The notes below the pieces were generated by a model. That model ran no database searches. It saw only the letters and a program-made list of their open reading frames with translations, and had not been told where the DNA came from. Shown here piece by piece: positions 7,000 to 62,285 of a DNA stretch of 64,000 nt. Made by a program: the position numbers and the translations under genes. How positions within the stretch are numbered: position 1 is the stretch's first letter; each line of letters starts with the position of its first letter. This stretch comes from an uncultured Hormoscilla sp. (GTDB taxonomy: Bacteria; Cyanobacteriota; Cyanobacteriia; Cyanobacteriales; Desertifilaceae). Where the stretch lies: NCBI GenBank assembly GCA_963921275.4, contig OZ001293.3, positions 3,680,001 to 3,744,000 of the forward strand. The letters run 5' to 3'.

Positions 7000-7610
7000 T
7001 TTGAATATGAACGGCCGATGTCACGGCATACAAGCGTTGATAGCCAGTTTTGAGGTAGCGACGGGCAAGGTAATCTGTCCGTCAGTGGGACCTACCCGCA
7101 CTGAAGAAGATTTTGCAGCGCAGATCCGCGCTACTGTAGAAACAGACCCCCAAGGTCAATGGGTATTCATTTGCGACCAATTGAATACCCGACGCCCACA
7201 AATCCGAAACCCTGGTTAAGATTGTTGCTCAGTTGTGCGGCATTGAAGATGAATTAGGTTTGAAGGGAAAATCCGGCATTCTTCAAAACATGGCGAACCG
7301 TGCGACTTTTTTGCAGAATCAAAGCCATCGTATCCGCTTTGTTTATACCCCCAAATATTGCTCATGGCTAAACCAGGTGGAAATGTGGTTTGGCATAAGA
7401 ACTCGCCGGTTGCTCAAAAGCGGCAACTTCACGTCGATGTCTCCTGGGTAGTGCTTTTAGCGCTCGGCGTCTCTCGGGAGCGCTAAAAGCACTCCCGAGA
7501 GACGCCGAGCCCCAGGAGACATCGAAGCTTGAAGAACTCAAACGTCGTATTCTCGCATTCATTGAGTTCTTTAATCATACCTTGGCCAAACCGTTTCGTT
7601 AGACTTATAT
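7000..7610 (+). pseudogene. IS630-family transposase fragment
   Basis: FICDQLNT, RIRFVYTPKYCSWLNQVEMWF motifs; interrupted by a hairpin nest at 7434-7525. Confidence 0.8.
7434..7525. repeat. Two-level nested hairpin element
   Basis: Outer arms TCGATGTCTCCTGGG/CCCAGGAGACATCGA with loop TAGTGCTTTTAGCGCT; inner arms CGGCGTCTCTCGGG/CCCGAGAGACGCCG with the loop inverted (AGCGCTAAAAGCACT). Confidence 0.9.
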
Positions 7611-14530: not shown

Positions 14531-14878
14531 TGAGGATGAATAAGTCCGGAGTGCGGTTGCGCAGTTCCCCCCGGTGGCGAAACTCAGTCTCTAACCGCTG
14601 GTTGACTTGCTTGGTGCAATCGCCCCGCACCCCCAGATTATAAATAACGTGACCAGCACTATCTGCGGTGTCTCCTAGGTGGTGCGATGTCTTCTGGGAG
14701 CGCTAGTCGCACCACACTGCGGCGACATCCAGCGGCGCCGCAGTCGTTCCACCCAGCCTCCGCCTTCATGGTCCCCGAAGCCGTACACTAAGCTATCCCC
14801 CAATGCCACTATCTTCAGGGGATGATGAGCCGTTGGTGAATGCATCTGATTGCAAGAATGAGCCACTGACTTGTACAT
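14525..14878 (-). pseudogene. GDSL/SGNH lipase pseudogene
   Basis: KIVALGDSLVYGFGD...GGWVERLRR and YNLGVRGD...RLETEFRHRGELRN; broken by a hairpin insertion at ~14665-14720 and truncated 3'. Confidence 0.8.
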
Positions 14879-18429: not shown

Positions 18430-20807
18430 GTGCGATTCGTTTATTGTAAACTGACTTGAAACAGGTCAAGAAAGGGAATCACTAGCAGGGTTCCATTAGC
18501 CCTGACAACTTTTAGATGATGGTGGTGAAAGCCCACCCCTCCAGGTGCTCTCGTGACAGCACTTACCCCACGGTAGCGATGGCATCAATCCGTGAAGCGG
18601 GTATGAAAGGCGCACTGACTGGTAGTCCAAACTGGTTATCGTCAAGCAAGTAGCCATGATGAGCGTAAGTTAAGACTCATAAGTGTCGTTAGTGTCAACC
18701 ACTGTAATAAGGCTGACACACTGGCCCAAAAAGGGAAAGGATAATGGTCATTGGCGTAAGTGCAGACGACCAATAAGCACTGACAATAAACCCGGCATAT
18801 AGAGTCCATCTAAAGCTACGACCAATCATCTAGAGGAACGAAATAAACCAGATACAAACTCTCTATCACCGGTCGATAGATAGAGTAGTCACCAAAGACG
18901 TAACATCTGCTCACATTTGGCAGGTTGTATTTGGGAAAGATTTCGTGGAGAAGCAAACGGCCACTGGTAATAGGTGGTATACGCTGACGCCCTCACGGTA
19001 ATGTCAAGAGTAAAGCGGTGAGTAGTAATGAAACGTCATAGACACGAGAAATCGATGGATGAATGGAAGACGATACCCTGGCGAAAGCTGGAACGTTTAG
19101 TCTTTAAGTTACAAAAGCGGATTTACAAAGCGGCACAACGTGGCGACAAGCGAATGGTTCGCAGACTCCAGAGGTTACTGGTAAGCTCCCAGGCTGCCAA
19201 GAAACTAGCGGTACGGCGGGTAACACAAGACAACCAGGGAAAGAATACTGCTGGTGTGGATGGTGTAAAAACGCTGAACCCAAGGCAGCGCTTAGAACTG
19301 GTAGGACGGATCAAAATCTCGAACAAGGCTAGACCCGCACGGCGAGTGTGGATACCGAAACCAGGGAGAGACGAAAAGCGTCCATTGGGAATACCGACGA
19401 TGCACGACCGCGCAGCACAGGGGTTACTGAAGATAGCGCACTTATCCTGAATGGGAGGCGTACTTTGAAGGTAATTCTTACGGCTTTAGGCCAGGGAGAG
19501 GATGTCATGACGCAATCGGAGCAATATTCAATAGCATCTGTAGAAAACCTAAATGGGTATTAGATGCCGATATAGCAAAATGCTTCGACAGAATTGACCA
19601 CCAAGCGTTGATGGACAAATTGAATACGACATCACCAATCCGCAAACAAATACGGGCATGGCTAAAAGCCGGGGTGATGGAGAAAAGAAGTTTGTACCCA
19701 ACTGATGAGGGTACTCCTCAAGGAGGAGTGATATCCCCATTACTGGCGAATATAGCCCTACATGGACTAGAGGAAACAGTGATGGAAATGGGAAAGACGC
19801 AAAGTGAAAAGCGTAAATTGGCGGTAGTCAGATACGCCGACAACCTTGTGGTAATTCATGAGGAAAGAAAGAAGATAGAAGAAGCACAAGTGGTCATAGC
19901 GGAGTGGCTAAAAGAAGTTGGATTAGAACTTAAACCAGAGAAAACCCAAATAGCACATACGCTGAATGGAGATGATCCAGGATTTGACTTCCTAGGATTC
20001 AACGTAAGGCAATATGTGGTAAGTAAGAACAGAAGTGGTAAGAATCAACATGGAAAAGTTCTAGGCTTCAAAACCCTAATCAAACCCAGTAAAAAGTCCA
20101 TAGGGAAGCATAAAGAAAGGTTATCAGAAGTGGTAACAAGCCATAAATCAGCTCCTCAAGAAGCCTTAATCAGGAAACTGAACCCTATAATACGGGGATG
20201 GGCTAACTATTTTAGGACAGGAGTGAGTAAGGAAACTTACAGTGAGATGGACAACTACTTGTGGAACATCCTGTGGCAATGGGCTAGCAGAAGACACCCG
20301 AATAAGTCGAGACACTGGATAGCCAGGAGATACTGGTCCATAGGCGAAGATGGACACTGGAGATTTAGATGCAAGATGGAAAAGGGTGAAATTTCACTAA
20401 TAAAACACACGAGTGTAGAAATAGAAAGACATGTAAAGGTGAAAGATAAGGCTAGCCCATATGATGGGAACCTCACTTATTGGAGTACGAGATTAGGTAG
20501 AAACCCGGAAGTGAATGATAGAGAAGCAAGACTACTCAAGAAGCAGAAGGGGAAATGCCAACACTGTGAACAAATATTCAAAGACGGAGACAACTGGGAG
20601 GTAGACCACATCAAGCCACTCTCATTAGGTGGCAAAGACGAATGGAAAAACTTAGAGTTGTTACACAAACATTGCCACGATACAAAGACTGCCAGTGATG
20701 GTAGTAGCCGTGCCCATGACAAGGGTGGCGTTACTGAGGATGAGGTGAAAGTCTCACGTCCGGTTTTGAAGACGAGTCGGTACGGTGACGTACTGGCTTA
20801 GTTTAAT
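18430..20807 (+). mobile_element. Group II intron with RT/maturase/HNH ORF, decayed
   Basis: 5' GTGCGATTCG; DV/DVI-like 3' end GAGGTGAAAGTCTCACGTCCGGTTTTGAAGACGAG...TTTAAT; inserted within the TAA of the host transposase. Confidence 0.88.
19028..20801 (+). pseudogene. ltrA: Group II intron reverse transcriptase/maturase with HNH domain, frameshifted
   Basis: TAGVDG, RPLGIPTMHDRA, GTPQGGVISPLLANIAL, YADN in place of YADD, LNPIIRGWANYF, HNH (EVDHIKP...LLHKHCHD); frameshift near 19437. Confidence 0.85.
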
Positions 20808-24610: not shown

Positions 24611-25620
24611 CCATGACTCAAGATTATACAGATGTCCGATACCGAAGTTTGTCAATTGTTGTTCAATGCCATTCACTCCCGAGAATCTAATTTAGCGGAT
24701 AAGGTACAACTCCTAGACGGAGAAATTTTCAAACTATTACCCTTGATTGGCTTGCAACTAATGTCGATTATTTTGAGCTACTTAAGTTCTCAACTGACTC
24801 CATATGACTTGGAAAAAGGGTATCAAGTTCACCGTCACATAGGAGTAAAATATGGAGTGCTTTTTGGTCCGATAGAAGTAGAATCACCCTATATGTGGAA
24901 CCGCCAAAAAAAACAGGGGACTCCTCCGGTCAAAAACCAATTAGGCATTACTGATGTCGGGCGTTCTCCAGCTAAGATAAAAGCTATGGCTGCGCCACGC
25001 TACGCGATGCGCGATTGGTATCTTTGGGAATCAATCAATCAACAAGCGGCTAAACAATTTGAACAACACTATGGATGGAATAAAGATCGCTATCGAGTGA
25101 TAAGAGCGGTAGCCAAAATCGCTCCCCTTGCAGAGGAGTATGTTTCTCAACGACTAGAGCGTTCAAGAGCAGAAGATAATAAACCCCTCGATGTCAAACA
25201 AGGAGTTGAGAACATTTTGGTGGAACTTGATGGCTGTGCTGTCATATTCGCACTGGTATCTTTCAATCAGCTCAAAATCAACAGTTAACAATATTACGGC
25301 AAATTCCTTCAAAAAAGCGTACAACATAGTGCCTTGAAGTCAGTGTTGGTTTGGCTCGCCCACTTCAAAGAAAAATGCACTTTTGTGGCTAAGATGAGTA
25401 AGTATCCTCTTGTTGTAAATCAATTGGTAAGTGCAGCAATAGATCAAGGGATGTCGCTACGAGCGTAACGTCTATGCAGTCAGAGATGGTGGGAATGGGC
25501 TATGCTCAGAACTAGAGAAACAATTTGATAACTTGCAATTTATCCTAGATCGTTGCCATCTCAAACAACATCTTTATGAAACCGCTGATACGCAGTGCGC
25601 GACGCAGGATCGCTAGCTCT
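24611..25620 (+). pseudogene. ISKra4-like transposase remnant
   Basis: LFGPIEVESPY, ILVELDG, DGGNGL, QFILDRCHLKQHLYE fragments. Confidence 0.6.
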
Positions 25621-33471: not shown

Positions 33472-36168
33472 ATGTCAACGCTTGTAATTGTCGAATCTCC
33501 GACCAAAGCCCGTACCATACGGAACTTCCTGCCCTTTGACTATCGTGTAGAGGCATCAATGGGTCACGTGCGCGACCTCCCCTCTTCTGCTGATGAAATT
33601 CCCGAAGCTGTCAAAGGGGAAAAATGGGCGCAGCTGGGGGTTAACGTGGAGGCGGACTTTGAGCCACTTTATGTTGTCCCCAAGAATAAAAAAAAGGTAG
33701 TCACAGAACTGAAAAAAGCCCTCAAACAGGCTGATGAACTAATTCTGGCAACAGACGAAGACCGCGAAGGTGAAAGCATCAGCTGGCATCTTCTGGATCT
33801 GCTGAACCCGAAAGTCCCCATTAAGCGGATGGTGTTCCACGAAATCACCCGGGAAGCCATACGTAAAGCGCTGTCGGACTGCCGGAATATCGATATGCAG
33901 CTAGTCCACGCTCAGGAAACCAGGCGGATTTTAGACCGACTGGTGGGCTACACCCTGTCTCCCCTGCTGTGGAAGAAAATTTCCTCGGGATTATCAGCTG
34001 GGCGGGTACAATCTGTAGCTGTGCGGTTACTGGTGTTGCGGGAACGTCAACGTCGAGCCTTCCGCCAAGGTAGCTACTGGGACTTAAAAGCGATTCTGGA
34101 TATTCAGCATACCTCTTTTGAGGCGCGATTAGTTACCCTGGCAGGCAGTAAAGTTGCCACGGGCAGCGATTTTGACCCGGATACGGGACAAATTGCCTCT
34201 GGTAGAAATGTCAGACTGTTAAATGAAGCAGATGCCAAAGAACTTCAAGCCCGTCTGTTGGGTAAAACCTGGAGAGTCAGCTCCGTTGATGAACGACCGG
34301 TGACCCGCTCGCCTTCACCTCCCTTTACCACATCGACCCTGCAACAGGAGGCTAACCGGAAGCTGGGGCTATCGGCCAGAGATACGATGCGGACGGCTCA
34401 AAGTCTGTACGAACAGGGGTATATAACCTATATGCGGACGGACTCTGTGCATTTGTCCCAGCAGGCGATCGCCGCTGCCCGAGCTTGTGTAGAACAGAAG
34501 TATGGCTCTGAGTATCTCAGCCCGACACCGCGCCAGTACAAGACTAAAAGCAAAGGCGCGCAAGAAGCGCACGAAGCCATTCGTCCAGTGTCTCCTGAGA
34601 GCGCTAGTCGCACTACTCAGGAGACACCGCCAGCAGGTAGCAGTTTCCGCACGCCGTCTCTGACGGGTCTGACAGGGCGGGAATTTCAGCTGTACGACCT
34701 AATTTGGAAGCGTACTGTCGCGACCCAAATGGCTGCCGCCAGGGTTACTCAAATTATCGCCCTGCTGCTAGTGGAAGGGGCTGGCTTCCGTTCGACTGGC
34801 AAGCGAATTGATTTTCCTGGTTTCTTCCGTGCTTACGTAGAAGGTTCTGACGACCCAAATGCGGCTCTAGAAAACCAGGAAGTGATTCTGCCACCCTTAA
34901 AGGTAGGAGATCGCCCCAACTGTCGAGAATTAGAGGCCATTGGCCATGAAACCCAGCCTCCCGCCCGTTATACAGAGGCGTCCCTAGTGAAAACCCTGGA
35001 AAAAGAAGGCATTGGGCGTCCCAGCACCTACGCTACCATCATCGGCACGATCGTCGATCGGGGCTATGCTCAAATAATTAACAAAGCCCTAGTGCCCACC
35101 TTCACGGCCTTTGCGGTCACCAGTCTGCTAGAAGCACATTTTCCGGACCTAGTAGACACCCGCTTTACTTCCCGGATGGAGCGAACTCTAGATGACATCT
35201 CTACCGGAGAAGTGGACTGGCTTCCTTATCTGCGAGAATTTTATTGCGGAGAAACCGGTCTGTCCAATCAGGTAAAAGAACAGGAAAGCCAAATTGACCC
35301 AAAACTTGCTCGGACCGTGGAACTGGTTGGCTTAGAGGCCAAAGTCTGCATTGGCAGATTTGGCCCTTACATCGAAGTTGATAATGGCTCTGGTGTGCTC
35401 AAAGCTTCCATTCCCAAAGACCTTACCCCAGATCAGCTCGACTCCGAACAAGTAGAAGCGCTGTTGAAGCAGAAAACCTCTGGACCAGAGGAACTGGGTC
35501 AGCACCCAGAAACTGGCGATACTATCTATCTCCTGAATGGCAACTATGGCCCCTACCTGCAGCTGGGTGATGGCGATAGTGAGAAGAAGAAGAAGCCCAA
35601 GCGGTCCTCTCTACCTAAAGGCGTCACTCCCGATCTGGTCACCCTGGAAATGGCCGTAGGATTGTTGGCCCTGCCTCGCTTTCTGGGATCCCACCCGGAA
35701 ACTGATGCTAAAGTCCATGCTGGTTTAGGACGTTTTGGCCCTTATGTGGTTCACGACCAAGGTAAGGAAGGTAAAGATTATCGTTCCTTAAAGAAAGATG
35801 ACAATGTCTTGACAATTGATCTCCAACGTGCATTGGAGTTACTCGCTGAACCGAAGAAGCGACGCAATAGCCGCAGTAAGAAACCTTTACGAGAGTTGGG
35901 TAAACATCCATCAGATGGAGAACCAGTGAATATCTACGATGGGCGTTATGGTCCTTATGTCAATCATGGCAAAATTAATGTTACTTTGGCAGAGGGGACA
36001 GCGGTCGAAGAGGTGACCTTGGAGATAGCCCTAGAATTGCTAGCAGCCAAGGCTTCCACATCTTCAACCCGTCGCAAGTCGAGTAAGTCAACCGGGACTA
36101 AAAAGACTAGCGCCCGGCTTCCGGAGGGTAGTGCTTTTAGCGCTCCCTCCGGAGGCCACAAGCAATGA
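33472..36168 (+). CDS. topA: DNA topoisomerase I
   Basis: [53 protein letters not shown]-terminal GRFGPY repeats. Confidence 0.97.
34586..34629. repeat. Hairpin element in frame inside topA
   Basis: GTGTCTCCTGAG-AGCGCTAGTCGCACTA-CTCAGGAGACAC, adding [15 protein letters not shown]. Confidence 0.9.
36116..36157. repeat. Hairpin element in the topA 3' end
   Basis: GGCTTCCGGAGGG-TAGTGCTTTTAGCGCT-CCCTCCGGAGGCC. Confidence 0.88.
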
Positions 36169-37579: not shown

Positions 37580-37725
37580 AACGCAGCCCGATCGGGGGGG
37601 TAATGATAATTTGAATAACAATCAACCCCCGATGTCCCTTGACAGGGGTGATATTCTATTTTTACACCCCTGTCAAGGGACATCGCCCCCACCTCCGGAG
37701 CAGACTAGTGCAGCAGGGCAGAAAT

Positions 37726-40106: not shown

Positions 40107-41568
40107 TAGACATTTCCAAAATATAAAATTCTGGTATAATAAGATTGAAAAAATTTAATTGTGAGGTTTAAGGAACATGATATATAGTTATACATGGACA
40201 TATTGAGAAGCACAAAGAAGCAAAGCAGTTAATCGGTATCAGTTATGAAAATTTTATGCAACTTATCATTTTAGCAAAAAAAATGAAAAAAAAGTATCAA
40301 GACAATGTATAAAAGACGAAAATTAGATTAATCGAACCAGAAGTCGGCGCCCAACCTAAATTATTAGTGGAAGATCAAATACTCTTAACCTTGATTTATA
40401 TACGACAAGGTTTGACATTTCAAATGTTAGGATTGCACCGTGAGCAAATCTACAATAATTATTTCAGTTATTGGCCAAAAATATTTTGAGCTCTTTGGCC
40501 GTTTGCTTGAACAGGTTAAATGTAATGGAGAAAATGAATAAATTTTAACAAATTTCTTAAAAGAGTATGAATTAATTGTAGATAGCGCAGAGCAAGCTAT
40601 TCCAAGGCCTAAAGGCTATGAAGAACAGAAAAAATTTTACTCCTGAGCAGGTAAGAAAAATACCATACATGGCTGCGCCCCCATCGCTACGCGTGGCGCA
40701 GCCATGCGCAGCGCTATCGAAAAAATCAATTTATTGTGTTGCCTAGTAGCGATAGCGAAGCGTGTGCAGACATTGTGAATATTATTCCTGGAGAGAGAGG
40801 TCGAAAAAGTGATATAAATATTGTGAGAGCCAAGAAAATTTTCATCGTCACTTGACAAGGGTGATTTAATAAGATATCACCCTTGTCAAGTGACACCGCC
40901 AGAACAAAAATTTGCAGGAGATCAGGCTTATATTGGAGAACCTCAAATAAAAACCCCCTTATAAAAAGCCGAAGAAACAAGAGTTAACAGAGTTACAAAA
41001 AGAAGAAAACAAATAATTTTCTTCTCGTTTTTGTGGAACATGTAATTAGGTTAGTGAAAATATTTAACCCACTTTCCGCACGACAAGTTGTAACATGCTA
41101 AGCAATACGTAATTTATCGATGAGATTACTATTGCACTACTTTTTGTAATCTTTACTAGCTCTGATAATTTAGTAAACAGGACGTATATTTATTTATACG
41201 GGTCTGAACTTTTCGGTTCGTAAAATCACAAGCTGTTTGTAATCATTGTGTCATACATTTTGTAGTGCAAAATGTATGATTTAAGGTTGCGGGGGAAACA
41301 TTTCGTTGAAATTCTGATAAATATAATTCAATAATTTCTACAGTTTGTGGGCTAGTTAGATTACGGATTGGTGCAGAAATTTTAGAAGTAGTAAGTAAGG
41401 GTGAATGCACCGAAAATTTTGAGGTTAACCAATACCATGCAATGGAAGTAATTTGTTGATAGAAACTCTATCAAACCCTGATGTCGCCGTTTAGATCACA
41501 TATGTGAGAAAGTGAGATTAGGCTTGAAACCCAGCGCTGGTAAAGGTTTTATTGTTGGAAATGTCTAA
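40107..41568 (+). mobile_element. IS5/ISL2-like element, degraded, with several small insertions
   Basis: Ends TAGACATTTCCAA / TTGGAAATGTCTA; IVDSAEQ, FAGDQAYIGE, VEHVIRLVKIF; paralog of 27456-28501. Confidence 0.7.
41068..41278. mobile_element. ~210-bp MITE, copy 4
   Basis: Same sequence family; ATTTAA duplicated, splitting LVKIF/KVAGE. Confidence 0.85.
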
Positions 41569-42478: not shown

Positions 42479-42801
42479 CGGTGTTCCCTGGGTAGTGCGA
42501 GTACAGCGCGAGCGGTCTCCGGTAGTGCTTTTACGATGTCTCGGGGGTAGTGCAGCGCTCTGTATCTCCCCTTTTGTGCGATTACGATGTCCTCCCTTTT
42601 GTGCGATTAGCGCTCCGCGTCCCCTTTTGTGCGATTAGCGCTCTGTATCTCCCCTTTTGTGCGATTACGATGTCCTCCCTTTTGTGCGATTAGCGCTCCC
42701 GGAGGACATCGAGCGACCAGGAGATACAGAGTCCCGGGAGACCGCTCGCCCTGTCAGGAGATACCTCGCCCTCCGAGACATCGAGCGACCAGGGAACACC
42801 G
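42479..42801. repeat. Multi-level nest of hairpin elements with internal tandem duplication
   Basis: Left arms CGGTGTTCCCTGG, GCGAGCGGTCTCC, CGATGTCTCGG, CTCTGTATCTCC, CGATGTCCTCC have complementary partners on the right in near mirror order. Confidence 0.88.
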
Positions 42802-42891: not shown

Positions 42892-42935
42892 CGATATCTC
42901 TGGGGAGCGTTAGGAGCACTACCCCAGAGATATCG
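42892..42935. repeat. Single hairpin element
   Basis: CGATATCTCTGGGG-AGCGTTAGGAGCACTA-CCCCAGAGATATCG. Confidence 0.9.
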
Positions 42936-46993: not shown

Positions 46994-47226
46994 AAGTTTT
47001 TCAACAAGCTGAGCACTTCCAAGTGCTCTTTTTTTCGGTCTGCTTCTATACTAACCTAAGTTGCGACCTATTAAAAAAAATATGAATTACCCACTTAGAC
47101 TTTACAGATATTTGGGATATTTCGTAGCTTTTGATACAAAATTATATTTTTTTTGTGCTACACGGCGGGTTGGCTGTTTATAGGTTATAATGTACTAAAA
47201 TAATAGTTAATTGCTGGGGGATGTAG

Positions 47227-48051
47227 ATGATGAAAGATATGATTACAACAATTTTTGTTCTTTGTGACGAGCTACTAAAAGCGTTAAATATAAAAGAAGA
47301 TCCACAAGTAAAAATGAACAATGCCGAAGTGATGACAGTCGGATTAGTTGCTGCATATTTTTTCGGAGGACACCACGATCGCTCTTGTCAATTTATGGTC
47401 CAACACAAGTATATAAAAAATCTGTTAAGTAAAAGTAGGTTCAATCGTCGATTACACAATATTGAGGAACCAATTTGGATGTTTTTCTTCCAAGTTATAG
47501 CTCAAACATTTAAAGAGCTCAATCCGGGTCAAGAATATATTCTTGATAGTTTCCCGGTGCCAGTATGTGATAATATTAGGATTGATAGATGCCAAATTTA
47601 TAACAAGGAAGAATATCGAGGGTATATTGCCAGTAAAAAACGTTATTTTTATGGATTAAGAGTTCATATGTTGGTAAACAAAAATGGAAAGCCAATAGAA
47701 TTTTATCTAGATCCTGGTAGTTATAATGATTTTAAAGTTTTGCAATCTTTTGGCTTTGACTTACCATCAAATTCAATAGTTTATGGAGATAAAGCTTATA
47801 ATAATTATCAATTAGAGGATTTACTAAAAGAGTCGTCAAGTATAATGTTAAAACCTTTGCGAAAAAAGAACTCAAAAAGAAAAGAATCTTCTTGTTTTGA
47901 ATATATACAAAAAGTAACAAGAAAACAAGTTGAAACCTGTTTTAGTCGAATCACCAATTTGTTTCCCAAGTCAATTCATGCTGTTACATCTAAGGGATTA
48001 GAGTTGAAAATAATTCTCTTTATCATAGCTTTTTGTATCCAATTTTTATAG
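47227..48051 (+). CDS. IS982-family transposase, apparently intact (element ~47054-48065)
   Basis: 274-aa ORF with LDSFPVPVC, YFYGLRVH, GDKAY, RKQVET; ends ACCTAAGTTGCGACCTA / TAGGTCGCAACTTGAGT. Confidence 0.88.
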   Translation: MMKDMITTIFVLCDELLKALNIKEDPQVKMNNAEVMTVGLVAAYFFGGHHDRSCQFMVQHKYIKNLLSKSRFNRRLHNIEEPIWMFFFQVIAQTFKELNPGQEYILDSFPVPVCDNIRIDRCQIYNKEEYRGYIASKKRYFYGLRVHMLVNKNGKPIEFYLDPGSYNDFKVLQSFGFDLPSNSIVYGDKAYNNYQLEDLLKESSSIMLKPLRKKNSKRKESSCFEYIQKVTRKQVETCFSRITNLFPKSIHAVTSKGLELKIILFIIAFCIQFL

Positions 48052-48130
48052 GTCGCAACTTGAGTTATACTACATCATTGCTCCCCCAACCGCTGGATTC
48101 GCCCCATCGGAGCGTATTTAACTTCCTCGT

Positions 48131-48285
48131 CGATGTCTCCTGTGTGCCGTTCCCGTAGCGTGGCGCAGCCATGTCCCCTGGGACAAGAGCAAGGAGCAGA
48201 GATATCTCCGATGTCTCCTGTGTGCCGTTCCCGTAGCGTGGCGCAGCCATGTCCCCTGGGACAAGAGCAAGGAACAGAGATATCG
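48131..48285. repeat. 78-bp tandem duplication of a composite repeat
   Basis: Unit CGATGTCTCCTGTGTGCCG...CGTAGCGTGGCGCAGCCATGTCCCCTGGGACAAGAG...GAGATATC; related copy at 58140-58219. Confidence 0.85.
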
Positions 48286-49765: not shown

Positions 49766-52700
49766 TTATTTTGCTGCCCCAACTCCGCCAGATATATCGG
49801 AGTAATCAGCAGCACTGTCGTAGTCATCCCGCGAGTTACTATCGGACGCCCCATCTTCAGAAGCATTGAAGCCAGTACCGGCGGGAATCAAGCGTCCGAT
49901 GATCACATTTTCCTTGAGGCCCCGCAACCAGTCAGACTTACCTTCGATCGCGGCCTCAGTCAGCACCCGGGTGGTCTCCTGGAAGCTTGCAGCTGAGATA
50001 AAGCTATCTGTATTCAGAGATGCTTTGGTAATTCCCAGAAGCACGGGGGTGTAAATTGCTGGTGCTCCTCCGGTAATGGACAGGGCATCATTAACCTGTT
50101 GCACTTCGTAGATCTCGACTAGCTCCCCTGGCAGCATTGTGGTGTCACCGCCATCATCAACACGACCTTTAGATGTCATTTGCCGCACGATCACTTCTAT
50201 GTGCTTGTCAGAAATGTCAATCTCCTGAGACTGGTAGACTGACTGCACTGCATTCACTAGAAAGATCTGCACTTCCTGTAATGCTGCTAAGGCTGCTTCA
50301 TCAACTGTGCGCGGGTTATGATTATTGCCCGATGTGCGAGGGACAGTGCTTCTAGCGCTCGCCAGAGATATCGAAGCTGACTGCTCGCCACCATCGGTGT
50401 TCCCACTAGCTATTTCTCGGTAGAGATTAAAGTAGACTTCCAAGATCTGGTGGGGATTAGACGGGCCATCAGAGAGCGGTTGCCCTGCTTTGATTTGCTG
50501 TCCATCAATTACTATTGCACTTTGACCTGGCCCTAGGGTATACTCGGCGATCGCTCCATCCGATTCGATCACTTTAACTGCAACGGTTTCATCTTCTTGA
50601 TAGATCACCTGAGCTGTTCCCGGTCTTGTGGCCAGTACGCAAAATTCTTTGGGCTTACGGGCCTCCAGCAGTTCTTCGATCCGTGGTAACCCCTGGATAA
50701 TATCTCCGGTCTTCGAGCGATCAAAGACGAGCAGCACCAAATTATCACCTCGCTGCACCAGGTCTCGATCTTCTATGTGGAGTATTGCTCCGGCCGAAAC
50801 CCGGTAAGGACGGGCTATGCGCAATATAACTAGAGTCCCGGACTCTGACGAGGAGACTTGGAGCACTTGACCTGATTCTGGCAAAAATACTCCCGGCGCT
50901 ATCTCGGTGCCATCTAGCAGAAAATCTCCTGCTTTCACTTCTACTAATAGGTTGGGTAAGTCGGCAATGACAAGCTTGTCAAGGTCGCGCAAGACCAGGA
51001 GTCGGCGACCCGCAGAGGATCCTTCTCGAATGCCTTGAACTATGCCTGCTTCTTTGCACTGAATCTCTGTCTTGGCTACTACTTCACCGGGGGCAATCTG
51101 TTGGCCATCGCTTACTAGTATGCGGGTATGGGAACTTCCTTGAGTCGGGTCTGCTGCTACATCACGACGGATGACTAGAGATTCTAGTATGACTAGCTGC
51201 AACCGCATGATTTCGCTCGTGGTCTCGTCTGTTACCAGTTCTATATCTGCTTCCAGGTTTCCCGATGTGGCGCTCCTATGTGAGATGAGAATTTCTTTGT
51301 TTATATAAAGCACTAGCTGGGTGCGCAACAATTCTAAGCCGGAAACTGATTTGACTCTTTCTCCGTCTTTGTATGGCAACCGCTGCACTGTCCGGAGCTG
51401 TATTAAGCCGCCATTATCTTGAGATGATTCCTGAGATGGCACAAGGGGTGTGTCTGGAACTGTATATTCTATTGCTGGTCGGAGCCGCAGGGCTGGTCCG
51501 AGCGGGGTGTCTAGGTATTCTACATAGCGTAAAGAAGCTCCCATGAAAACATCTGTTGGCGATGCCTGAGGGGTTTTTGCGAAGCATCCCGATTTTTCAG
51601 GCATCGAAGGTCCATTTGGCGCGACGGCGCCACTCACAAGGGGGACCGTCTGAGCTGTCGCAAGCTGTTGGTCTTTTGTCGATGGATCCTCACTGCTTTC
51701 TACTTCCATGAGAGCAAGGTCGAGGTTCAGGTTCAACTCCCGCGCAGGAGCTCTGCTTGCTTCGGACAGTCCTAATGAGGCAATGTTGGACCGATCGATC
51801 AATGTCCCCTCTTTTGGGATTTCTGTGGAATTGGTGATTAAATGCAATGAGCCGGGTTTGATGGAGATCTCGCGGAGGATGTCATTTTTCTCGATTACCT
51901 GGACGCAACCGCTGCTGGTGCAGAAGATGTCTTTGACTATTTCCGTGCCTGCTTCTACATATTGACCATCTTCGACTAGGCGCACTGAGCTATCTTTATT
52001 CACTTCATATGTTTCTTCTGGGAGCCACAGTAAGGTTCCACCTTTGGTGACTTCATATCCCTGTTTTGCTTTGCTCCGCTTTGCTTCGACTCCTGCATAT
52101 TTGATCGTACCGCCTGTGGTTGTGCGATAGCCCTCATCTAGCAGTTCTGCCACTACTTGACCATTGCTGACTTGCGTGCCGGGTGTGGCGACCAGAGAAA
52201 ATTTCTGACCCTCTGCGGTGGTGATGATATACTGCTCTTTGCCTTGGTCTTTGCTGATGGATACTCCAGCTCGATCTAGCAGTACGCTGGCGGTAATGAT
52301 TTCTATTTCCCGTCCCGCTTCTTCTGTGCCTATTGCCTCTGGGAGTCTGACTATGCCTCCATGTTCTGTGCGGGTACTGGTTTGGGCGATGACTGAACCC
52401 CGCGAGATGCGATCGCCATTTTGCACTACTGGTTCTGCTCCCGGGGGCAGGTTGTATACCTCTCCTGAAAGAATCCAGATTAAACCTCCCACTCTGGCGA
52501 CGCGTGTTGTGTTTCCTTGCCGATCGCGCTTTTCTTCTGGTATTATGTCGGTGAATATTGCTTCCCCGGATATATCACTGGCTACATCTTTGGTGGCTTT
52601 TTCTGTACTGATTTTGGACATTGCGCCTGTCGGTGGCACTTCGGCGATTCTCTGACCTGCTGTTATTCTATCCCCATCTTTTACCAGTATTATTGCTCCC

Positions 52701-53971
52701 TGGGGAATCTGGATCTGATAGTATGACTGTTTTTTTTGTTTTACAGTTATCTGGCTACTGGATGTATCCGAAAAAGCTCCATTTTCTTGAACCACTCTTA
52801 CCACTTCATCTTCCACCATCAATGACAGATTAGCATTTGCCGATTCCACTCGCATTACTTCTTTCTCTTGGCGAGTGCGCAGAGCACCATATTGGATTGT
52901 GCCGTTGCAAGGTGCTAATATTTCTCTTGCTGCTCCTGAGAATACTCCTCCTGTGTGGAATGTTCGCATTGTCAACTGTGTCCCTGGCTCACCGATTGAC
53001 TGGGCTGCGATTATTCCTACTGCTTCCCCTAGGTCTACCATGTCGCAGTGTGCTAAACTCCATCCATAGCATTTTTGACATACTGAGCGTTTTGATTCGC
53101 ATGTTAGAGGCGATCGCACGTACACTTCTTGGACTCCCGCTTTTTGAATATGAAGTGCCAATTCATCACTTATGTCCTGATTCTTTGACGCGATCGTTTT
53201 CCCTGTCTTTGGATGAATGACTGGTGCGGCTAGGACTCTTCCCAGCAGGCGGTCTTTGAGGGTAATTAATTCCCGATCGCCTTCTTTCATGCTGCTCAAA
53301 GGTATTCCCCTGGTTGTTAAGCAGTCTTCATCCCGGATGATTACGTCCTGAGACACATCTACTAAACGCCTGGTCAGATAACCTGAATCTGCTGTTCTCA
53401 GTGCGGTGTCCACTAATCCCTTGCGAGCTCCGTAGGATGAGATGATATATTCTGTGACTGTTAATCCTTCCCGGAAGTTTGTCTTTATTGGTAAATCTAT
53501 GATTTCTCCTTGCGGATCTGCCATTAGCCCCCGCATTCCCACTAGCTGCCGCACTTGGGATATATTTCCCCTGGCTCCTGAAAATGCCATCATGTACACG
53601 GAGTTGAGCGGGTTATTTGAACGCAGGTAACGCACGACTTCATCTTTGAGCGCTTCTGATGTACTATTCCAAGTATCGATTACTTTTTGAAACCGCTCTA
53701 CTTCGGTTATTTCTCCCCGACTATAACGTGCTTCTGTCGCGCGAATCATTTCTTCTGCTGCCCCAAGCAACTGCTGCTTTGATGGGGGCACTTGTAAATC
53801 CTCTACGCTAATTGATACTCCGGCTTTGGTTGCATAGCGAAATCCTAAGTCTTTCAGCTTATCTGCCATTAGGGAGCATTTAGCAGGACCATATTTCGTG
53901 AATGCCCATGATATCAGTTTCTTCAGCTGACCTTTGTCTATTACCCGATTTCTAAAGATCATTTTTTTCAT
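49766..53971 (-). CDS. rpoC2: RNA polymerase RpoC2 subunit with lineage-specific insertions
   Basis: [65 protein letters not shown]. Confidence 0.97.
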
Positions 53972-54130
53972 TTTTCTGTTGTCAGTTGTCAGTTGTCAGC
54001 GTTTAACATTCTCTCTGCCTGGTACGTGCTCACCAAGAATCTATCGGGCTCTTTGTAGTGAGCCTGCTGTGTCTCTTGACAGAAGTGATGGGCCTGGTAC
54101 TTATAAAAATAGTACCAGCGTGAGCGTCTG

Positions 54131-54266
54131 CGATATTTCTGGGGATCTCGATGTCTCTGGATATCTAGATGTTTCCCGGGAGCGCCTTAAGCACAACTCC
54201 GGGGTAACATCGTATTCGCACTACCCCGGAGATATCGTATTCGCACGTCCTCTCTGGGGGATATCG
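54131..54266. repeat. Three-level hairpin nest between rpoB and rpoC2
   Basis: CGATATTTCT.../...GGGATATCG, CGATGTCTCTGG/CCGGAGATATCG, GATGTTTCCCGG/CCGGGGTAACATC; loop remnants TATTCGCACTA. Confidence 0.8.
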
Positions 54267-54275
54267 ACCTCTACT

Positions 54276-57200
54276 TTACTCGTAACTTTCGGACATTTCC
54301 TCTACTATTGCGCTAGCCCCACGATAAGAGCCCCGACGATTATTGCTAGTATCTGCCATCAAATCTATTTCCTTTGATGTATTTGTGCCATCGGCGTGAT
54401 TTTCTACTTTATGCACTGCTATATCCAGACACAGTGACTGCAATTCCCGCATCAGCACTTTAAAGGATTCGGGGGTTCCTGGTCTGGGTATTGCTTTGCC
54501 TTTGACGATCGCATTTAGGGCTTCATTGCGTCCTTGCATGTCGTCCGATTTTACTGTTAGCAATTCCTGCAATGTGTAGGCTCCGCCAAATGCTTCTAGG
54601 GCCCATACTTCCATTTCTCCGAACCGCTGACCGCCCTGCTGTGCTTTTCCTCCCAAAGGTTGTTGGGTGACGAGGGAATAGGGGCCTGTGGAGCGTGCGT
54701 GGATTTTATCATCTACTAAATGCACGAGCTTCAGCATATATGCTTTGCCTACGGTAACTGGTTGGTCGAATGGTTCTCCTGTCCGTCCGTCATATACCTG
54801 GATTTTGCCGGGGTTTTCCTGGTTATACAACCATTTTTTTCCGGTCTCATAGACTGCCGAGAGCAATTTTCCATGTACTGTTTCTCGGGACTTTTCTTTG
54901 CCGTGCATTTCGTCAAAGGGCAGTATCTTATAACGAGTGTCCAGGTTTTCTCCTGCCCATCCTAGCAGGCATTCAAATATCTGACCTACGTTCATCCGAG
55001 ATGGCACTCCTAATGGGTTGAGGATGATATCGAGCGGTGTCCCATCGGGCATGTAGGGCATGTCTTCTATGGGCAATATCCGAGATATTATGCCTTTGTT
55101 GCCGTGGCGACCTGCCATTTTATCGCCGATCTGGATCTTCCGCTTTTGGGCTACGTATACGCGCACGACCATGTTTGCTCCTGGTGGCAATTCGTCTCCC
55201 TGTTCTCGGGTAAAGACGCGCACGTCTACTACTCGTCCTTTTTCGCCGTTTGGCACCCGCAGGGAGTTATCCCGGACATCCCTGGCTTTTTCTCCAAATA
55301 TGGCTCTGAGCAGTTTTTCTTCGGGTGGCTGATCTGATTCTCCTTTGGGGGTTACCTTGCCGACGAGGATCTCTCCTGTTTCTACCCAGGCTCCGATCCG
55401 AATTATGCCTGTTTCGTCTAGCTGCCGGAGGGCCTCTTCTCCGACGTTGGGGATCTCGCGGGTGATTTCTTCTGGTCCTAGCTTGGTTTGACGGGCTTCG
55501 ATTTCATATTTTTCGATGTGAATGGAGGTGTACAGGTCTTCGACTACTAGCCGTTCTGATATCAGGATGGCATCTTCGTAGTTGTACCCTTCCCAGGGCA
55601 TGTAGGCTACGAGGATGTTTTGCCCTAGGGCTAGTTCTCCTTTTTCTGTAGATGAGCCGTCTGCTATTACTTGCCCTTTTACTACTTTGTCCCCGACATG
55701 CACGATCGGTTTTTGGTTCAGGCAGGTGTCTTGGTTGGAGCGATGATATTTATGCATTTCATAGGATATCTCTCGCGGAGGTATTTGGAAAATGTCTAAT
55801 TTTGTCTCGATGTCTCCCCCAGAGGGGACGTGCGAATACGATGTCTTCTCTTTTGTGCGATTAGCGCTCTGTATCTCCTGGGTGGTGCGGTTAGCGCGAG
55901 GTTTCTCCTGAGTAGTGCGAGTATGATGTCCCTCGGGTTTCGCCGTGCGTTCGGGGGACATCAAGCTCCCAGGAGATACCTCACCAGGAGATACCTCGCT
56001 CCCAGAAGACATCAAGCGACCATAGATATCGAAGCCTGTGCTTTCGCCATTAAAGAGCGATCCTGCGTCGCGAGCACCCGCAGGACCAGTAGCCAGGTGC
56101 GGCCGCTGCGCGTCGGATGAAGCCTTTTTCGGTATGCTTCTGACCCGTATTTTGGTTGCATCCACGTAGGTTACTACTCCATCTTCTTTGGATACGATCA
56201 CCATCCCCGAATCTCTGGCTGCCTGGGTTTCCATGCCAGTTCCTACTAATGGCCGTTCTGGACGCAATAGGGGAACTGCTTGTCGCTGCATGTTTGACCC
56301 CATGAGGGCCCGGTTGGCATCGTCATGTTCCAGGAAGGGGATTAAGGATGTTGCCACTGAGATGATTTGCACCGGTGATACGGAGACGTAGTCTACCTGG
56401 TCTGGGGTGGTGGTGGTGAAGTCTTGGCGATACCGTACTGGCACGATGTCGCTGGAGAGCTTGCCATTTTCGTCCACCGGTATGTCTCCTGGAGCTACCC
56501 GCAGGTCATCTTCCTCATCTGCTGTCATGAACACTGGGGGGATGTCGCGCCTGATTTGGCCATTTTCGACTCGGTAATATGGAGTTTCGATAAATCCATA
56601 TTCATTCACCCGGGCATGGGTGGCGAGGGATCCTATTAATCCGGCATTGGGACCTTCTGGGGTTTCAATCGGACATATCCGCCCATAGTGGGAAGGGTGA
56701 ATATCCCGCACGGCGAACCCTGCCCGTTCCCTGGTTAGTCCTCCTGGTCCTAGGGCGCTCAACCGCCGTTTATGGGTCAGTTCTGCTAAGGGGTTTGTCT
56801 GATCCATAAACTGGGATAGCTGGGATGAACCAAAGAATTCCTTGATCGCTGCTACTAATGGTTTGGAGTTGACTAGGGATGTGGGTGTCAATTGATCTGA
56901 GTCTAATACTATCATCCGCTCTCGGATTATCCTCTCTAACCGGTTTAATCCCACCCGCACTTGGTTTTGTAACAGTTCTCCGACCGCTCGCACTCGTCTG
57001 TTTCCCAGGTGGTCTATATCATCTATGGTGCCGATATCAAATTCCAGGTTGATCAGATAGTCTATGCTTGTCAGTATGTCCTCTTGGGTCAGCACTCGCT
57101 TCGTTTCTGACACAGAAAGGCGCAGCTTTTTGTTCAGCTTGTAGCGTCCTACTTTGCCGAGGTCGTAGCGTTTGGGGTCGAAGAAGCGGGATTCTAACAG

Positions 57201-57923
57201 TTGCTGTCCACCATTGACTGTTGGCGGTTCTCCTGGCCGCAGCTTGCGATATAGTTCTATCAGGGCATCTTCATCGGTATATTCTCCTTCTTTGTCGATG
57301 GTTTTCTGGAAATAATCTGGGTGACGCAAGGAGTCCAGTATTTCACTGGTGCTCATCCCCATTGCTTTGAGCAATACTTGGGCCGACAGCTTCCTGGTTT
57401 TGTCTATCCTTACCCATACCAGGTTATTTTTATCTGTTTCAAATTTTAGCCATGCTCCGCGATTGGGGAGCAGGGAGGCGTTGTAGGTCCGCCGACCGTT
57501 TTTGTCTGTTTCTGATTTGTAGTACACTCCGGGCGATCGCACTATTTGGTTAACGATGACTCGCTCTGATCCATTTATGATAAATGTGCCCCGATCTGTC
57601 ATCAGTGGCAGTTCGCCGATAAATACCTCTTGCTCTTTAATTTCCCCGGTTTCTTTGTTGAGCAAACGTGTGGGGACATACATTTGCACTGCGTAGGTTG
57701 CATCCCTGCGCTTTGCTTCTGCTACGTCGTATTTTGGTCGAAGGAGTGAGAATTTTTTCCCCAAAAAATGTAGCTCTAGTTTTCCCGTGTAGTCTGTTAT
57801 TGGAGAAAAGCTGTCTAGCTCTTCTATTAATCCCTCTTCTAGAAACCAGCGGAAGCTCGCTCTCTGGATCTCTACTAGATCTGGTAATTTAAATTTCACT
57901 TTTGTGTCGATCCTCTGATTCAT
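54276..57923 (-). CDS. rpoB: RNA polymerase beta subunit with a large in-frame insertion
   Basis: [52 protein letters not shown]. Confidence 0.98.
55807..56032. repeat. Five-level hairpin nest in frame within rpoB
   Basis: TCGA at 55807 and 56029, 222 nt apart (74 codons); five concentric arm pairs. Confidence 0.9.
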
Positions 57924-58241
57924 TTTCTGTCAAGGCTGCAAGGCGCGTTATTCTTATACTGAGCAATTTTGTCTCGACACGATCGCTGCCATTTGATACT
58001 CGGGAGGAGGGAAAGGGAGGGTTACCTTCGCGCTGCGGCGAGACGAACGGTGCTTCGATATCGCCGTGTCCCCCCTCCTTCCCACAGCGAAGCCTGGGAA
58101 GGTGCGAGTAGCGATCTGCGTCTCAAGAGCATGTGCTCCCGATATCTCCTGTGTGCCGATAGCGCTGCGCTGGGGGCGCAGCCATGTCCCCTGAGACAAG
58201 AGAGCTGGCAGAGATATCGAAGGGGAAACATCGTAGTCGCA

Positions 58242-59045
58242 CTACCCAGGACATGCGGTCCGTTCACTCTCCGGCAAATTAAATAGTTTACGGGCATTAT
58301 CTGTTGTTTGTGCCGCTAATGTTTCTACTGGCACTCCTCTGAGTTGGGCTACTTGCTCCGCTACATAACGGACGTATGCTGGCTCATTGCGTTTCCCTCG
58401 TTTTGGTTCAGGTGCCAGGAATGGACTGTCTGTTTCTATTAGTAGGCGATCGGGAGGCACCATGAGACATGACTCTTTTATCTGGACTGCTTTCTTAAAT
58501 GTCACGGTCCCGCTGAAGCTGATGTATAATCCCAAATCTAAGAACCATTCCGTTTCTTCTGGCCTTCCGCCCCAGCAATGCATCACCCCTCGTAATGAAC
58601 CTCCCGTGTTCTTCAATTCTCTCAGTTGTCTCGCTGCCTCTTGCGCCGCCTCTCGGAGGTGGATAATTACTGGTAATTCTAGAGCCTGGGCTAGGTAAAG
58701 CTGAGCGGCAAATACCTTTTTTTGCTGATCAAAATTATCCGCTTTATAAAAATCTAGCCCCGTTTCCCCTATTGCTACTACTTTCCGGTCAGCACTGACA
58801 AAATTCCTAATTACTTCCTCTGCCGAGCTTGTCCATAAATGGGCATCTAGGGGGTGCAACCCTACGGCAAAATATAGCTCGTCAATCTGAGCTGCTAATG
58901 TTTGGATGCTCTTTATCTCCGAGGGTGATACGCAAGAATGCACTAACTGCACTACTCCAGCGGAACGCCAACGGGTAACTACTTCGGACATATCCGACTC
59001 AAAGACATCAAAGTTTATGTGAACGTGGGTGTCAATCAACTGCAT
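58242..59045 (-). CDS. tatD: TatD family hydrolase
   Basis: [39 protein letters not shown]. Confidence 0.95.
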
Positions 59046-62097: not shown

Positions 62098-62285
62098 TTC
62101 GATATATCTGGGGAGCGCGCACTACCCCAGATATATCGAATCAACTTCTAGAGTTGGGGGAGTCTCAAGTGAGACTCCCCCAACGGGTGCATATCACTTT
62201 TGCGGCGATGTGCTCTGCGCGCTCGATGTCTCCGGAGAGCGAGCGCTAATCGCACTACGCATCGCACATCGCGGAGATATTCACC
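62098..62285. repeat. Cluster of hairpin elements
   Basis: TTCGATATATCTGGGG-AGCGCGCACTA-CCCCAGATATATCGAA; palindrome 62153-62184; nest CGATGTGCTCTGCG...AGCGCTAATCGCACTA...CGCATCGCACATCG. Confidence 0.85.

Follow-up and report, generated by a model that had tools for sequence, protein, structure and literature searches.

How does an essential gene come to carry a stack of hairpins, one inside another, within its own reading frame? The question is raised by rpoB, the gene for the RNA polymerase beta subunit, in a stretch of 64,000 nucleotides (nt) of DNA from an uncultured Hormoscilla sp. (GenBank assembly GCA_963921275.4, contig OZ001293.3, positions 3,680,001 to 3,744,000). This whole stretch is referred to below as the window, and coordinates are counted from its first letter. 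We consider it likely that the nest of hairpins in rpoB consists of five stacked copies of a small, non-autonomous palindromic element, which were serially inserted into the gene and are read through. Serial insertion fits because relatives have empty sites, because outer levels are shared where interiors differ, because each level holds one motif, and because the arms are found again at unlinked loci.

Five concentric hairpins within rpoB

The gene, the nest, and the parts of the added protein segment are located as follows.

54276 to 57923, minus strand: rpoB, RNA polymerase beta subunit, 1215 amino acids (aa), uninterrupted (open reading frame (ORF) and translation)
55782 to 56024, minus strand: 81 codons, Y634 to I714, without counterpart in the RpoB of five Hormoscilla (anchor comparison and MAFFT)
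55782 to 55806, minus strand: residues ETKLDIFQI, extra relative to Hormoscilla and beyond the nest, with the palindrome AAAATGTCTAATTTT at 55789 to 55803
55807 to 56032, no strand assigned: five-level concentric hairpin nest, 226 nt, TCGA at each end (inverted repeats, DNA fold, layer table)
56025 to 56135, minus strand: older lineage-specific loop segment, I597 to I633 (IPKKASS...GFDI) (protein alignment)

The nest itself is divided into five levels, numbered from the outside inward.

55807 to 55838, plus strand: Level 1 (outermost), left, with arm TCGATGTCT, a small TCCCC/GGGGA hairpin, and motif GTGCGAATA
55839 to 55863, plus strand: Level 2, left, with arm GATGTCTTCT and motif GTGCGATTA
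55864 to 55893, plus strand: Level 3, left, with arm GTATCTCCTGG and motif GTGCGGTTA
55894 to 55923, plus strand: Level 4, left, with arm GAGGTTTCTCCTG and motif GTAGTGCGAGTA
55924 to 55967, plus strand: Level 5 (innermost, a whole unit), TGATGTCCCTCG, a 16-nt loop with GTGCGTT, and CGGGGGACATCA
55968 to 55983, plus strand: Level 4, right, CCCAGGAGATACCTCA
55984 to 56000, plus strand: Level 3, right, CCAGGAGATACCTCGCT
56001 to 56019, plus strand: Level 2, right, CCCAGAAGACATCAAGCGA (10 of 10 nt complementary)
56020 to 56032, plus strand: Level 1, right, CCATAGATATCGA, which on the coding strand gives F-D-I, also present in relatives

The original prediction, made from the letters of the window, had named five inverted-repeat pairs in rpoB, and all five were found. 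It gave the nest a length of 222 nt (74 codons), which is the distance from the start of one TCGA to the start of the other; the five levels stand, and the true span is 226 nt, with AGATATCGA at 56024 to 56032. The arms of Level 1, TCGATGTCT and AGATATCGA, pair over 9 nt with 1 mismatch. Those of Level 2 are 10 to 11 nt long, those of Level 3 are perfect over 11 to 12 nt, and those of Levels 4 and 5 extend over 13 and 12 nt, respectively, each with 1 mismatch. With the boundaries chosen here, the sizes of Levels 1 to 5 are 45, 44, 47, 46, and 44 nt. The motif GTGCG occurs exactly five times in the nest, once per level after the left arm and always on the plus strand (at 55830, 55855, 55885, 55915, and 55945). 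Its spacings are 25, 30, 30, and 30 nt, and the left parts have a 30-nt period. On the right side, the arms of Levels 3 and 4 repeat the same 15 nt exactly and in tandem, and because of this the pairing of left with right arms in these two levels is ambiguous.

Folded as single-stranded DNA, the nest has a minimum free energy (MFE) of -49.1 kcal/mol, compared with -31.5 +/- 3.4 kcal/mol for shuffled sequences (z -5.18; 0 of 200 as good), and its centroid structure consists of five concentric stems. A 361-nt RNA from the region likewise reaches an MFE of -134.6 kcal/mol against -111.1 +/- 6.2 kcal/mol for shuffles (z -3.79; 0 of 100 as good).

The encoded protein is a beta subunit with an enlarged loop. 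Six Pfam Rpb2 domains were matched in the ORF, and it aligned to the cyanobacterial beta chains 8h3v_A, 8syi_C, and 8gzg_C with E = 0. Each of these alignments has a gap from query residue 595/596 to 716/719, where the solved chains have only 6 to 21 residues. The gap corresponds to residues 598/605 of 8syi_C and 611/633 of 8h3v_A and to about residue 735 of the E. coli beta subunit, and the sixth Pfam domain picks up again at RpoB residue 720, which is profile position 29. Residues 597 to 716 (120 residues) are encoded by DNA 55776 to 56135, the interval of the original prediction. The prediction put the extra sequence at roughly 110 to 120 residues; of the 120, only 81 are absent from the nearest relatives, about 37 being held in common with Hormoscilla.

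Translation of the insert gives the peptide repeats that had been predicted, with EVSPG and RTTQE twice each and RANRT and SANRT once each. The insert is made up mostly of S, T, E, G, R, P, and K, and the 74 to 81 or so added residues are probably disordered. An AlphaFold2 model of residues 440 to 900 built on a 61-row alignment was poor overall, with a mean predicted local distance difference test score (pLDDT) of 49.8 and a predicted template modelling score (pTM) of 0.34. It shows the insert as coil with block means of 33 to 47, which is little informative since conserved parts of the model are likewise below 50. A search with the 118-aa insert region matched zero Pfam families. The 81-aa insert had 2 matches among 1.84 billion representative proteins (E <=0.001), both of them unrelated tandem-repeat proteins, and among 14 candidates from longer proteins (E <=10) the single match was the window's own record. 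A blastn search of 55775 to 56135 against a plasmid collection returned zero matches.

The RpoB loop in relatives

For comparison we used the 120 best relatives of the window's RpoB. That the nest is an insertion, as had been proposed, is borne out by all five named Hormoscilla RpoB (1128 aa), which are precisely without it and join GFD directly to IP[DE]REISY. Outside residues 590 to 725, these five proteins are 96.6 to 97.3% identical to that of the window. The boundary of the 81 codons slides by one codon, with an isoleucine codon at each end.

A further relative, P0008, carries a longer insert at the same place. Its RpoB (1243 aa) is encoded on a different contig and is 97.6% identical to the window's outside the insert. 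The two inserts share the sequences DI.G.LMSSGSE and SANRTKEKT, one at each side, which are the translated Levels 1 and 2, and the interior of the P0008 insert differs from that of the window's nest. The original prediction had allowed for either serial or pre-assembled insertion. Serial growth is favored because P0008 has the same outer levels around a different interior, only these two levels being common to both. The ETKLDIFQI stretch at 55782 to 55806 has no counterpart in P0008.

The loop that holds these inserts varies in length among cyanobacteria. We measured it between two sequence anchors, both of which were matched in 81 of the 120 homologs, leaving 39 unmeasured. It is 17 to 54 aa long in 76 of the 81, in keeping with the permissive loop that had been predicted; the window's own record (134 aa) and P0008 (170 aa) exceed this range. 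In three measured homologs it is 240 to 241 aa long and holds an unrelated insert. Four relatives (P0011, P0012, P0013, and P0041) have an unrelated, hydrophobic, and apparently folded insertion that brings this same loop to about 240 aa. According to the original prediction, a repeat-derived origin would be refuted if distant cyanobacteria had a homologous insertion unrelated to the repeat; none of the proteins examined has one.

The segment next to the nest, at 56025 to 56135, is present in all seven proteins (the window's, the five Hormoscilla proteins, and P0008) and missing from more distant cyanobacteria. We considered whether it might be a decayed nest and rejected this, its fold being insignificant (z -1.18; 24 of 200 shuffles equal or better). 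A 17-mer within it, AGCGATCCTGCGTCGCG at 56056 to 56072, recurs at the unrelated position 25598 to 25614. This recurrence alone hints that the older part of the loop may have had a repeat origin too.

A palindromic repeat family in the window

The proposal that the nest is selfish DNA is supported by the distribution of its parts: the arms and the loop motif recur widely in the window and are nearly absent from 1.29 Mb of control DNA. The control comprised 80 loci (1,288,914 nt) from distant bacteria and cyanobacteria, several of the loci being cyanobacterial and none coming from Hormoscilla or from the window's own genome. A 17-nt loop motif, GTAGTGCGATTAGCGCT, had 17 matches in the window with up to 4 mismatches, compared with 0 to 3 in 20 shuffles. 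With up to 2 mismatches it had 9 matches in these 64 kb and 1 in the 1,288,914 nt of control DNA. The shorter words GTGCGAWTA and GATGTCYCC were found 11 and 7 times in the window against 0.81 and 0.94 expected, respectively. Perfect hairpins with a 10-bp stem numbered 98 (25 distinct), where 20 simulations gave 0 to 10.

Levels 1 to 4 of the nest each have 10-mers or longer words in common with other loci of the window. The Level 1 arm is found at 7434, 48130, 48209, 54147, and 62223, and the Level 1 motif block at 54207 to 54246. The Level 2 arm is found at 14685, and its loop block, CTTTTGTGCGATTA, occurs five times at 42571 to 42692. The left arm of Level 3 recurs at 42554 and 42637, and part of its right side, CCAGGAGATAC, at 20323 and 42717. 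Part of the left side of Level 4, CTCCTGAGTAGTGCGA, lies within topA at 34608 to 34616.

Whole single units are also present, for example at 34588 to 34627, 42668 to 42711, 42892 to 42935, and 62098 to 62140. Their arms, 10 to 16 nt long, are in most cases versions of CGATGTCTCC.../...GGAGACATCG and enclose a motif-bearing loop of 11 to 22 nt; the units measure 40 to 49 nt overall. In the copy as we picture it, two arms of 10 to 15 nt flank a loop of about 16 nt, in which the motif reads (G)TAGTGCGATTAGCGCT. Within nests, the next unit begins directly after the GTGCGNNTA motif of its host unit. Judging from these repeats, a family of palindromic elements of about 44 to 47 nt is abundant in this genome.

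Members of the family lie in frame in rpoB, in topA (two copies), and in rpoC2, and nests of it lie between genes.

33472 to 36168: topA
34588 to 34627, plus strand: single family unit in frame in topA, 12-bp stem and 16-nt loop
36116 to 36162, plus strand: single unit in the opposite orientation, forming the TopA C-terminal tail (unit match)
42481 to 42800, plus strand: large intergenic nest, eight left arms and six right arms (arm and motif matches)
49766 to 53971: rpoC2
54147 to 54266, plus strand: family nest in the 304-nt spacer between rpoB and rpoC2 (arm and motif matches)

The first topA unit sits within an insertion of 45 nt, or 15 codons. In an alignment of the window's TopA with 9 of 120 listed homologs, this insertion is present only in P0126 (96.6% identity, different contig) and is missing from 8 of the 9, including two Hormoscilla. 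The unit-derived tail is missing from all 9 aligned homologs, P0126, the closest, among them. RpoC2 has two segments, 726 to 810 and 1187 to 1226, that do not align with 8h3v_B, a solved chain with 10 and 6 residues in these places, respectively. The DNA of the unaligned segments contains a hairpin with a 10-bp stem at 51560 to 51606, and at about 50340 to 50390 there is a unit resembling the loop motif, with 5 differences from the 17-mer in its loop when compared by eye.

In the large intergenic nest at 42481 to 42800, the left arms follow one another with periods of 25, 28, 30, and 25 nt, and there is an 83-nt internal duplication. In view of these periods we dropped the idea of a unit fixed at 45 nt and thereby frame-neutral by design. 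Further family nests lie at 7434 to 7525 and 58040 to 58250.

Other repeats accompany the family. Two tandem copies of 78 nt at 48130 to 48285 have outer arms equal to those of rpoB Level 1 (TCGATGTCTCC...AGAGATATCGA) and a different interior; an interior like theirs is also found at 58140 to 58215. At 37630 to 37685, CGATGTCC and GGACATCG arms surround a 13-nt palindrome arm, CTTGACAGGGGTG, which also makes a separate 19-bp hairpin at 40847 to 40894. Other small elements may thus target the hairpin family, or the family may target them.

The surroundings are those of a genome that looks rich in insertion sequences (IS) and in broken genes. Coding density is low, the 64 kb holding only 20 ORFs of at least 150 aa, transposase fragments (IS66, IS4/5, and IS630-type) are numerous, and a reverse transcriptase and a subtilase each appear to be split into two ORFs. 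rpoC2 comes directly after rpoB, the spacer between them being 53972 to 54275. The control cyanobacterial locus L002 has rpoC1 between these two genes, whereas no rpoC1 is present anywhere in the window.

Origin of the nest and its meaning

In the course of events that we propose, the first copy would have entered a surface loop of RpoB that is variable in length and already held lineage-specific sequence. Each later copy would then have entered the loop of the previous copy, just after the GTGCGNNTA motif. The innermost copy would accordingly be the youngest, an order that we infer from the pattern of the nest. The outer stems would be older and therefore expected to be shorter, as is seen (9 to 11 nt for outer stems and 12 to 13 nt for inner stems). 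Since rpoB is essential, the only insertions to persist would have been those that were a multiple of three in length, free of stops in the frame used, and harmless to the enzyme. The nest would be read through, adding about 74 to 81 residues to the beta subunit.

Filtering for frame and for absence of stops had been part of the original prediction, and the other two coding-strand frames of the insert, which have three stops each, fit with this. The intergenic nest at 42481 to 42800 is closed in all 6 frames, and the loop motif as such leaves 4 of 6 frames open. The rpoB nest is also open in one frame of the strand opposite the gene, and because of this frame the argument from openness is only moderate. 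An ORF of 96 aa runs through the nest opposite rpoB (55830 to 56120, plus strand) and matches no Pfam family. The simplest explanation is that it arises as a by-product of the palindromes.

A different possibility is that the nest arrived ready-made, a composite being copied into rpoB in one step by block transposition or gene conversion. Family nests do exist elsewhere in the window (42481 to 42800, 54147 to 54266, and 7434 to 7525), two-arm blocks recur together inside the intergenic nest, and a single event would have to pass through selection only once. We nonetheless find a one-step origin improbable, since two outer levels in common with P0008 and a different interior are what growth at the innermost loop predicts, and since the same five-arm series occurs nowhere else in the 64 kb of genome examined. 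Growth of the nest by local replication error (slippage, template switching, or inverted duplication at a hairpin), with no transposition at all, is less probable again. It would account for the periodicity of the arms, 30 nt on the left and exactly 15 nt on the right, and for the unequal arm numbers and 83-nt duplication of the intergenic nest. However, every level has an arm sequence of its own that is also found at unlinked loci, whole single units occupy clean insertion sites in topA, and five balanced gains of a left arm, a motif, and a matching right arm fit insertion and not slippage.

Palindromes are difficult for some sequencing chemistries, which raises the question of whether the nest could be an artefact of assembly or sequencing. 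We give this very little credence: the family is found at many loci of the window, independent records on other contigs have such inserts (P0008 for RpoB and P0126 for TopA), the nest is an exact multiple of three in a gene that is otherwise intact, and the contig that holds the window's record is 6,879,066 nt long. The same slight weight attaches to removal of the nest from the mRNA or from the protein, which would leave a beta subunit of normal length and which had been offered as an alternative at the RNA level. The strong pairing of the RNA, -134.6 kcal/mol over 361 nt, is only suggestive of removal. Rfam matched nothing in rpoB, though it matched three group II intron RNAs elsewhere in the window, and neither an intein nor another Pfam domain is present in the insert. 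In addition, its 81 codons have been kept open where the two other coding-strand frames are closed. Bacteria are not known to have a ligation system able to seal an mRNA again once a plain hairpin has been taken out.

Serial insertion of a mobile element calls for something that moves it. Our preferred guess, a tentative one, is a single-strand, hairpin-recognizing transposase that would act in trans, by analogy with REP/RAYT or IS200/IS605. We prefer it because of the small size of the element, its hairpin with a conserved unpaired motif, and its preference for loops. A hairpin loop would be a natural target for such an enzyme.

Several points weigh against serial insertion of a defined element as set out above. 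Among the 84 ORFs of at least 90 aa in the window there is no Y1/RAYT domain, and no candidate transposase was found there. A MITE dependent on a DDE transposase would have terminal inverted repeats like those of a full-length IS and target-site duplications around each copy; the one intact IS whose ends were examined (47052 to 48067) has terminal repeats unrelated to the element. The two coding-region sites give no readable consistent target sequence or duplication; the flanks are a CC(A/G) codon on each side in topA and an isoleucine codon or TCGA on each side in rpoB, the empty sites being known as protein only. For the same reason the ends of the element are not placeable to the base, and the level sizes total 226 nt only under boundaries that we chose. 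By the left-arm periods of the nest at 42481 to 42800, unit length is variable. The unequal arms and the 83-nt duplication of that nest mean that nests are also remodelled by local duplication or recombination, and the identical right arms of Levels 3 and 4 suggest local duplication in rpoB too. Openness of the frame alone is weak evidence of selection given the second open frame, and translation of the nest is something we infer from the intact frame.

The element can be compared with several known kinds of small repeat. The small dispersed repeats SDR1-8 of the Nostocaceae, which Elhai et al. reportedly described in 2008, are said to be hairpin-forming repeats of 21 to 27 nt that insert into one another to give nested arrays. 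As so described, they resemble the present family in being very small, mobile, cyanobacterial hairpin repeats that nest in their own copies, as the family does in rpoB and at 42481 to 42800, 54147 to 54266, and 7434 to 7525. The present family differs from them in being about twice as long and in lying in a genome whose nearest named RpoB and TopA relatives are Hormoscilla. According to a later paper, no SDR-like repeat was found outside the Nostocaceae (PMC5861425).

Rickettsia palindromic elements (RPEs) are repeats of about 150 bp, each encoding a conserved peptide (PMC10969869). Like the present family, they are small palindromic repeats lying in frame in unrelated and often essential proteins, with the host protein intact (PMC10969869, PMC3733652). 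Unlike RPEs, the units in rpoB are 44 to 47 nt and the insertion in topA is 45 nt, the host is a cyanobacterium, and copies are stacked.

REPs have a conserved, unpaired GTAG (or CGTC) tetranucleotide at one end of the palindrome and have been recorded within genes, many of them replication and repair genes (PMC3733652). Intragenic REPs are likewise on record in a passage of another paper (PMC3184786). As in REP/REPIN, the units here are short imperfect palindromes in many copies, and at 40 to 49 nt they are slightly above the 20 to 40 nt range. GTAG is found in 7 of the 17 loop-motif matches, inside the loop beside the left arm. In REPs it lies at the end of the palindrome instead, and REPs are mainly extragenic; in addition, no RAYT gene is present among the ORFs of at least 90 aa in the window. 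The element works like RPE, REP, and SDR elements, yet by the features that can be tested (size, place of GTAG, and host lineage) it is a member of none of them. In the parts of the literature available to us, including what passages of Hormoscilla genome papers say on repeats, palindromes, transposases, and pseudogenes, we found no description of the family.

Large subunits of RNA polymerase are known to carry lineage-specific insertions, such as i4 and i9 of the E. coli beta subunit, and the cyanobacterial beta subunit is given as the 'type 1' form in the portions of these sources that treat it (PMC2939025, PMC11515920). We read 'type 1' as a form without such an inserted domain. The nest resembles the known insertions as extra sequence at the surface of a large subunit that varies by lineage. 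Whereas i4 and i9 are old, folded, phylum-wide domains, the nest is derived from repeats, is probably disordered, and differs among RpoB proteins that are about 97% identical.

How lineage-specific insertions in large conserved enzymes originate is an open question, and rpoB, an essential gene, offers a view of an early stage. Among RpoB proteins about 97% identical, the site is empty in one case and filled in two different ways in others. With such material one can test in what order the events took place, how far RNA polymerase tolerates added sequence, and how selfish DNA gives rise to coding sequence. A broader proposal is that a hairpin element of about 45 nt, with its own loop as target, builds strain-specific, probably disordered surface segments in RpoB, RpoC2, and TopA; this we regard as possible and, in its full extent, rather unlikely. 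As a further step, the added segment or the mRNA hairpin may have a function in RNA polymerase or in the expression of rpoB and rpoC2. The element family colonizes coding regions in a genome rich in IS and broken genes. If the proposal is true, no earlier REP-like repeat that nests in itself would be known to have colonized coding sequence on such a scale. If it is both true and general, it would show lineage-specific insertions of RNA polymerase in the course of arising.

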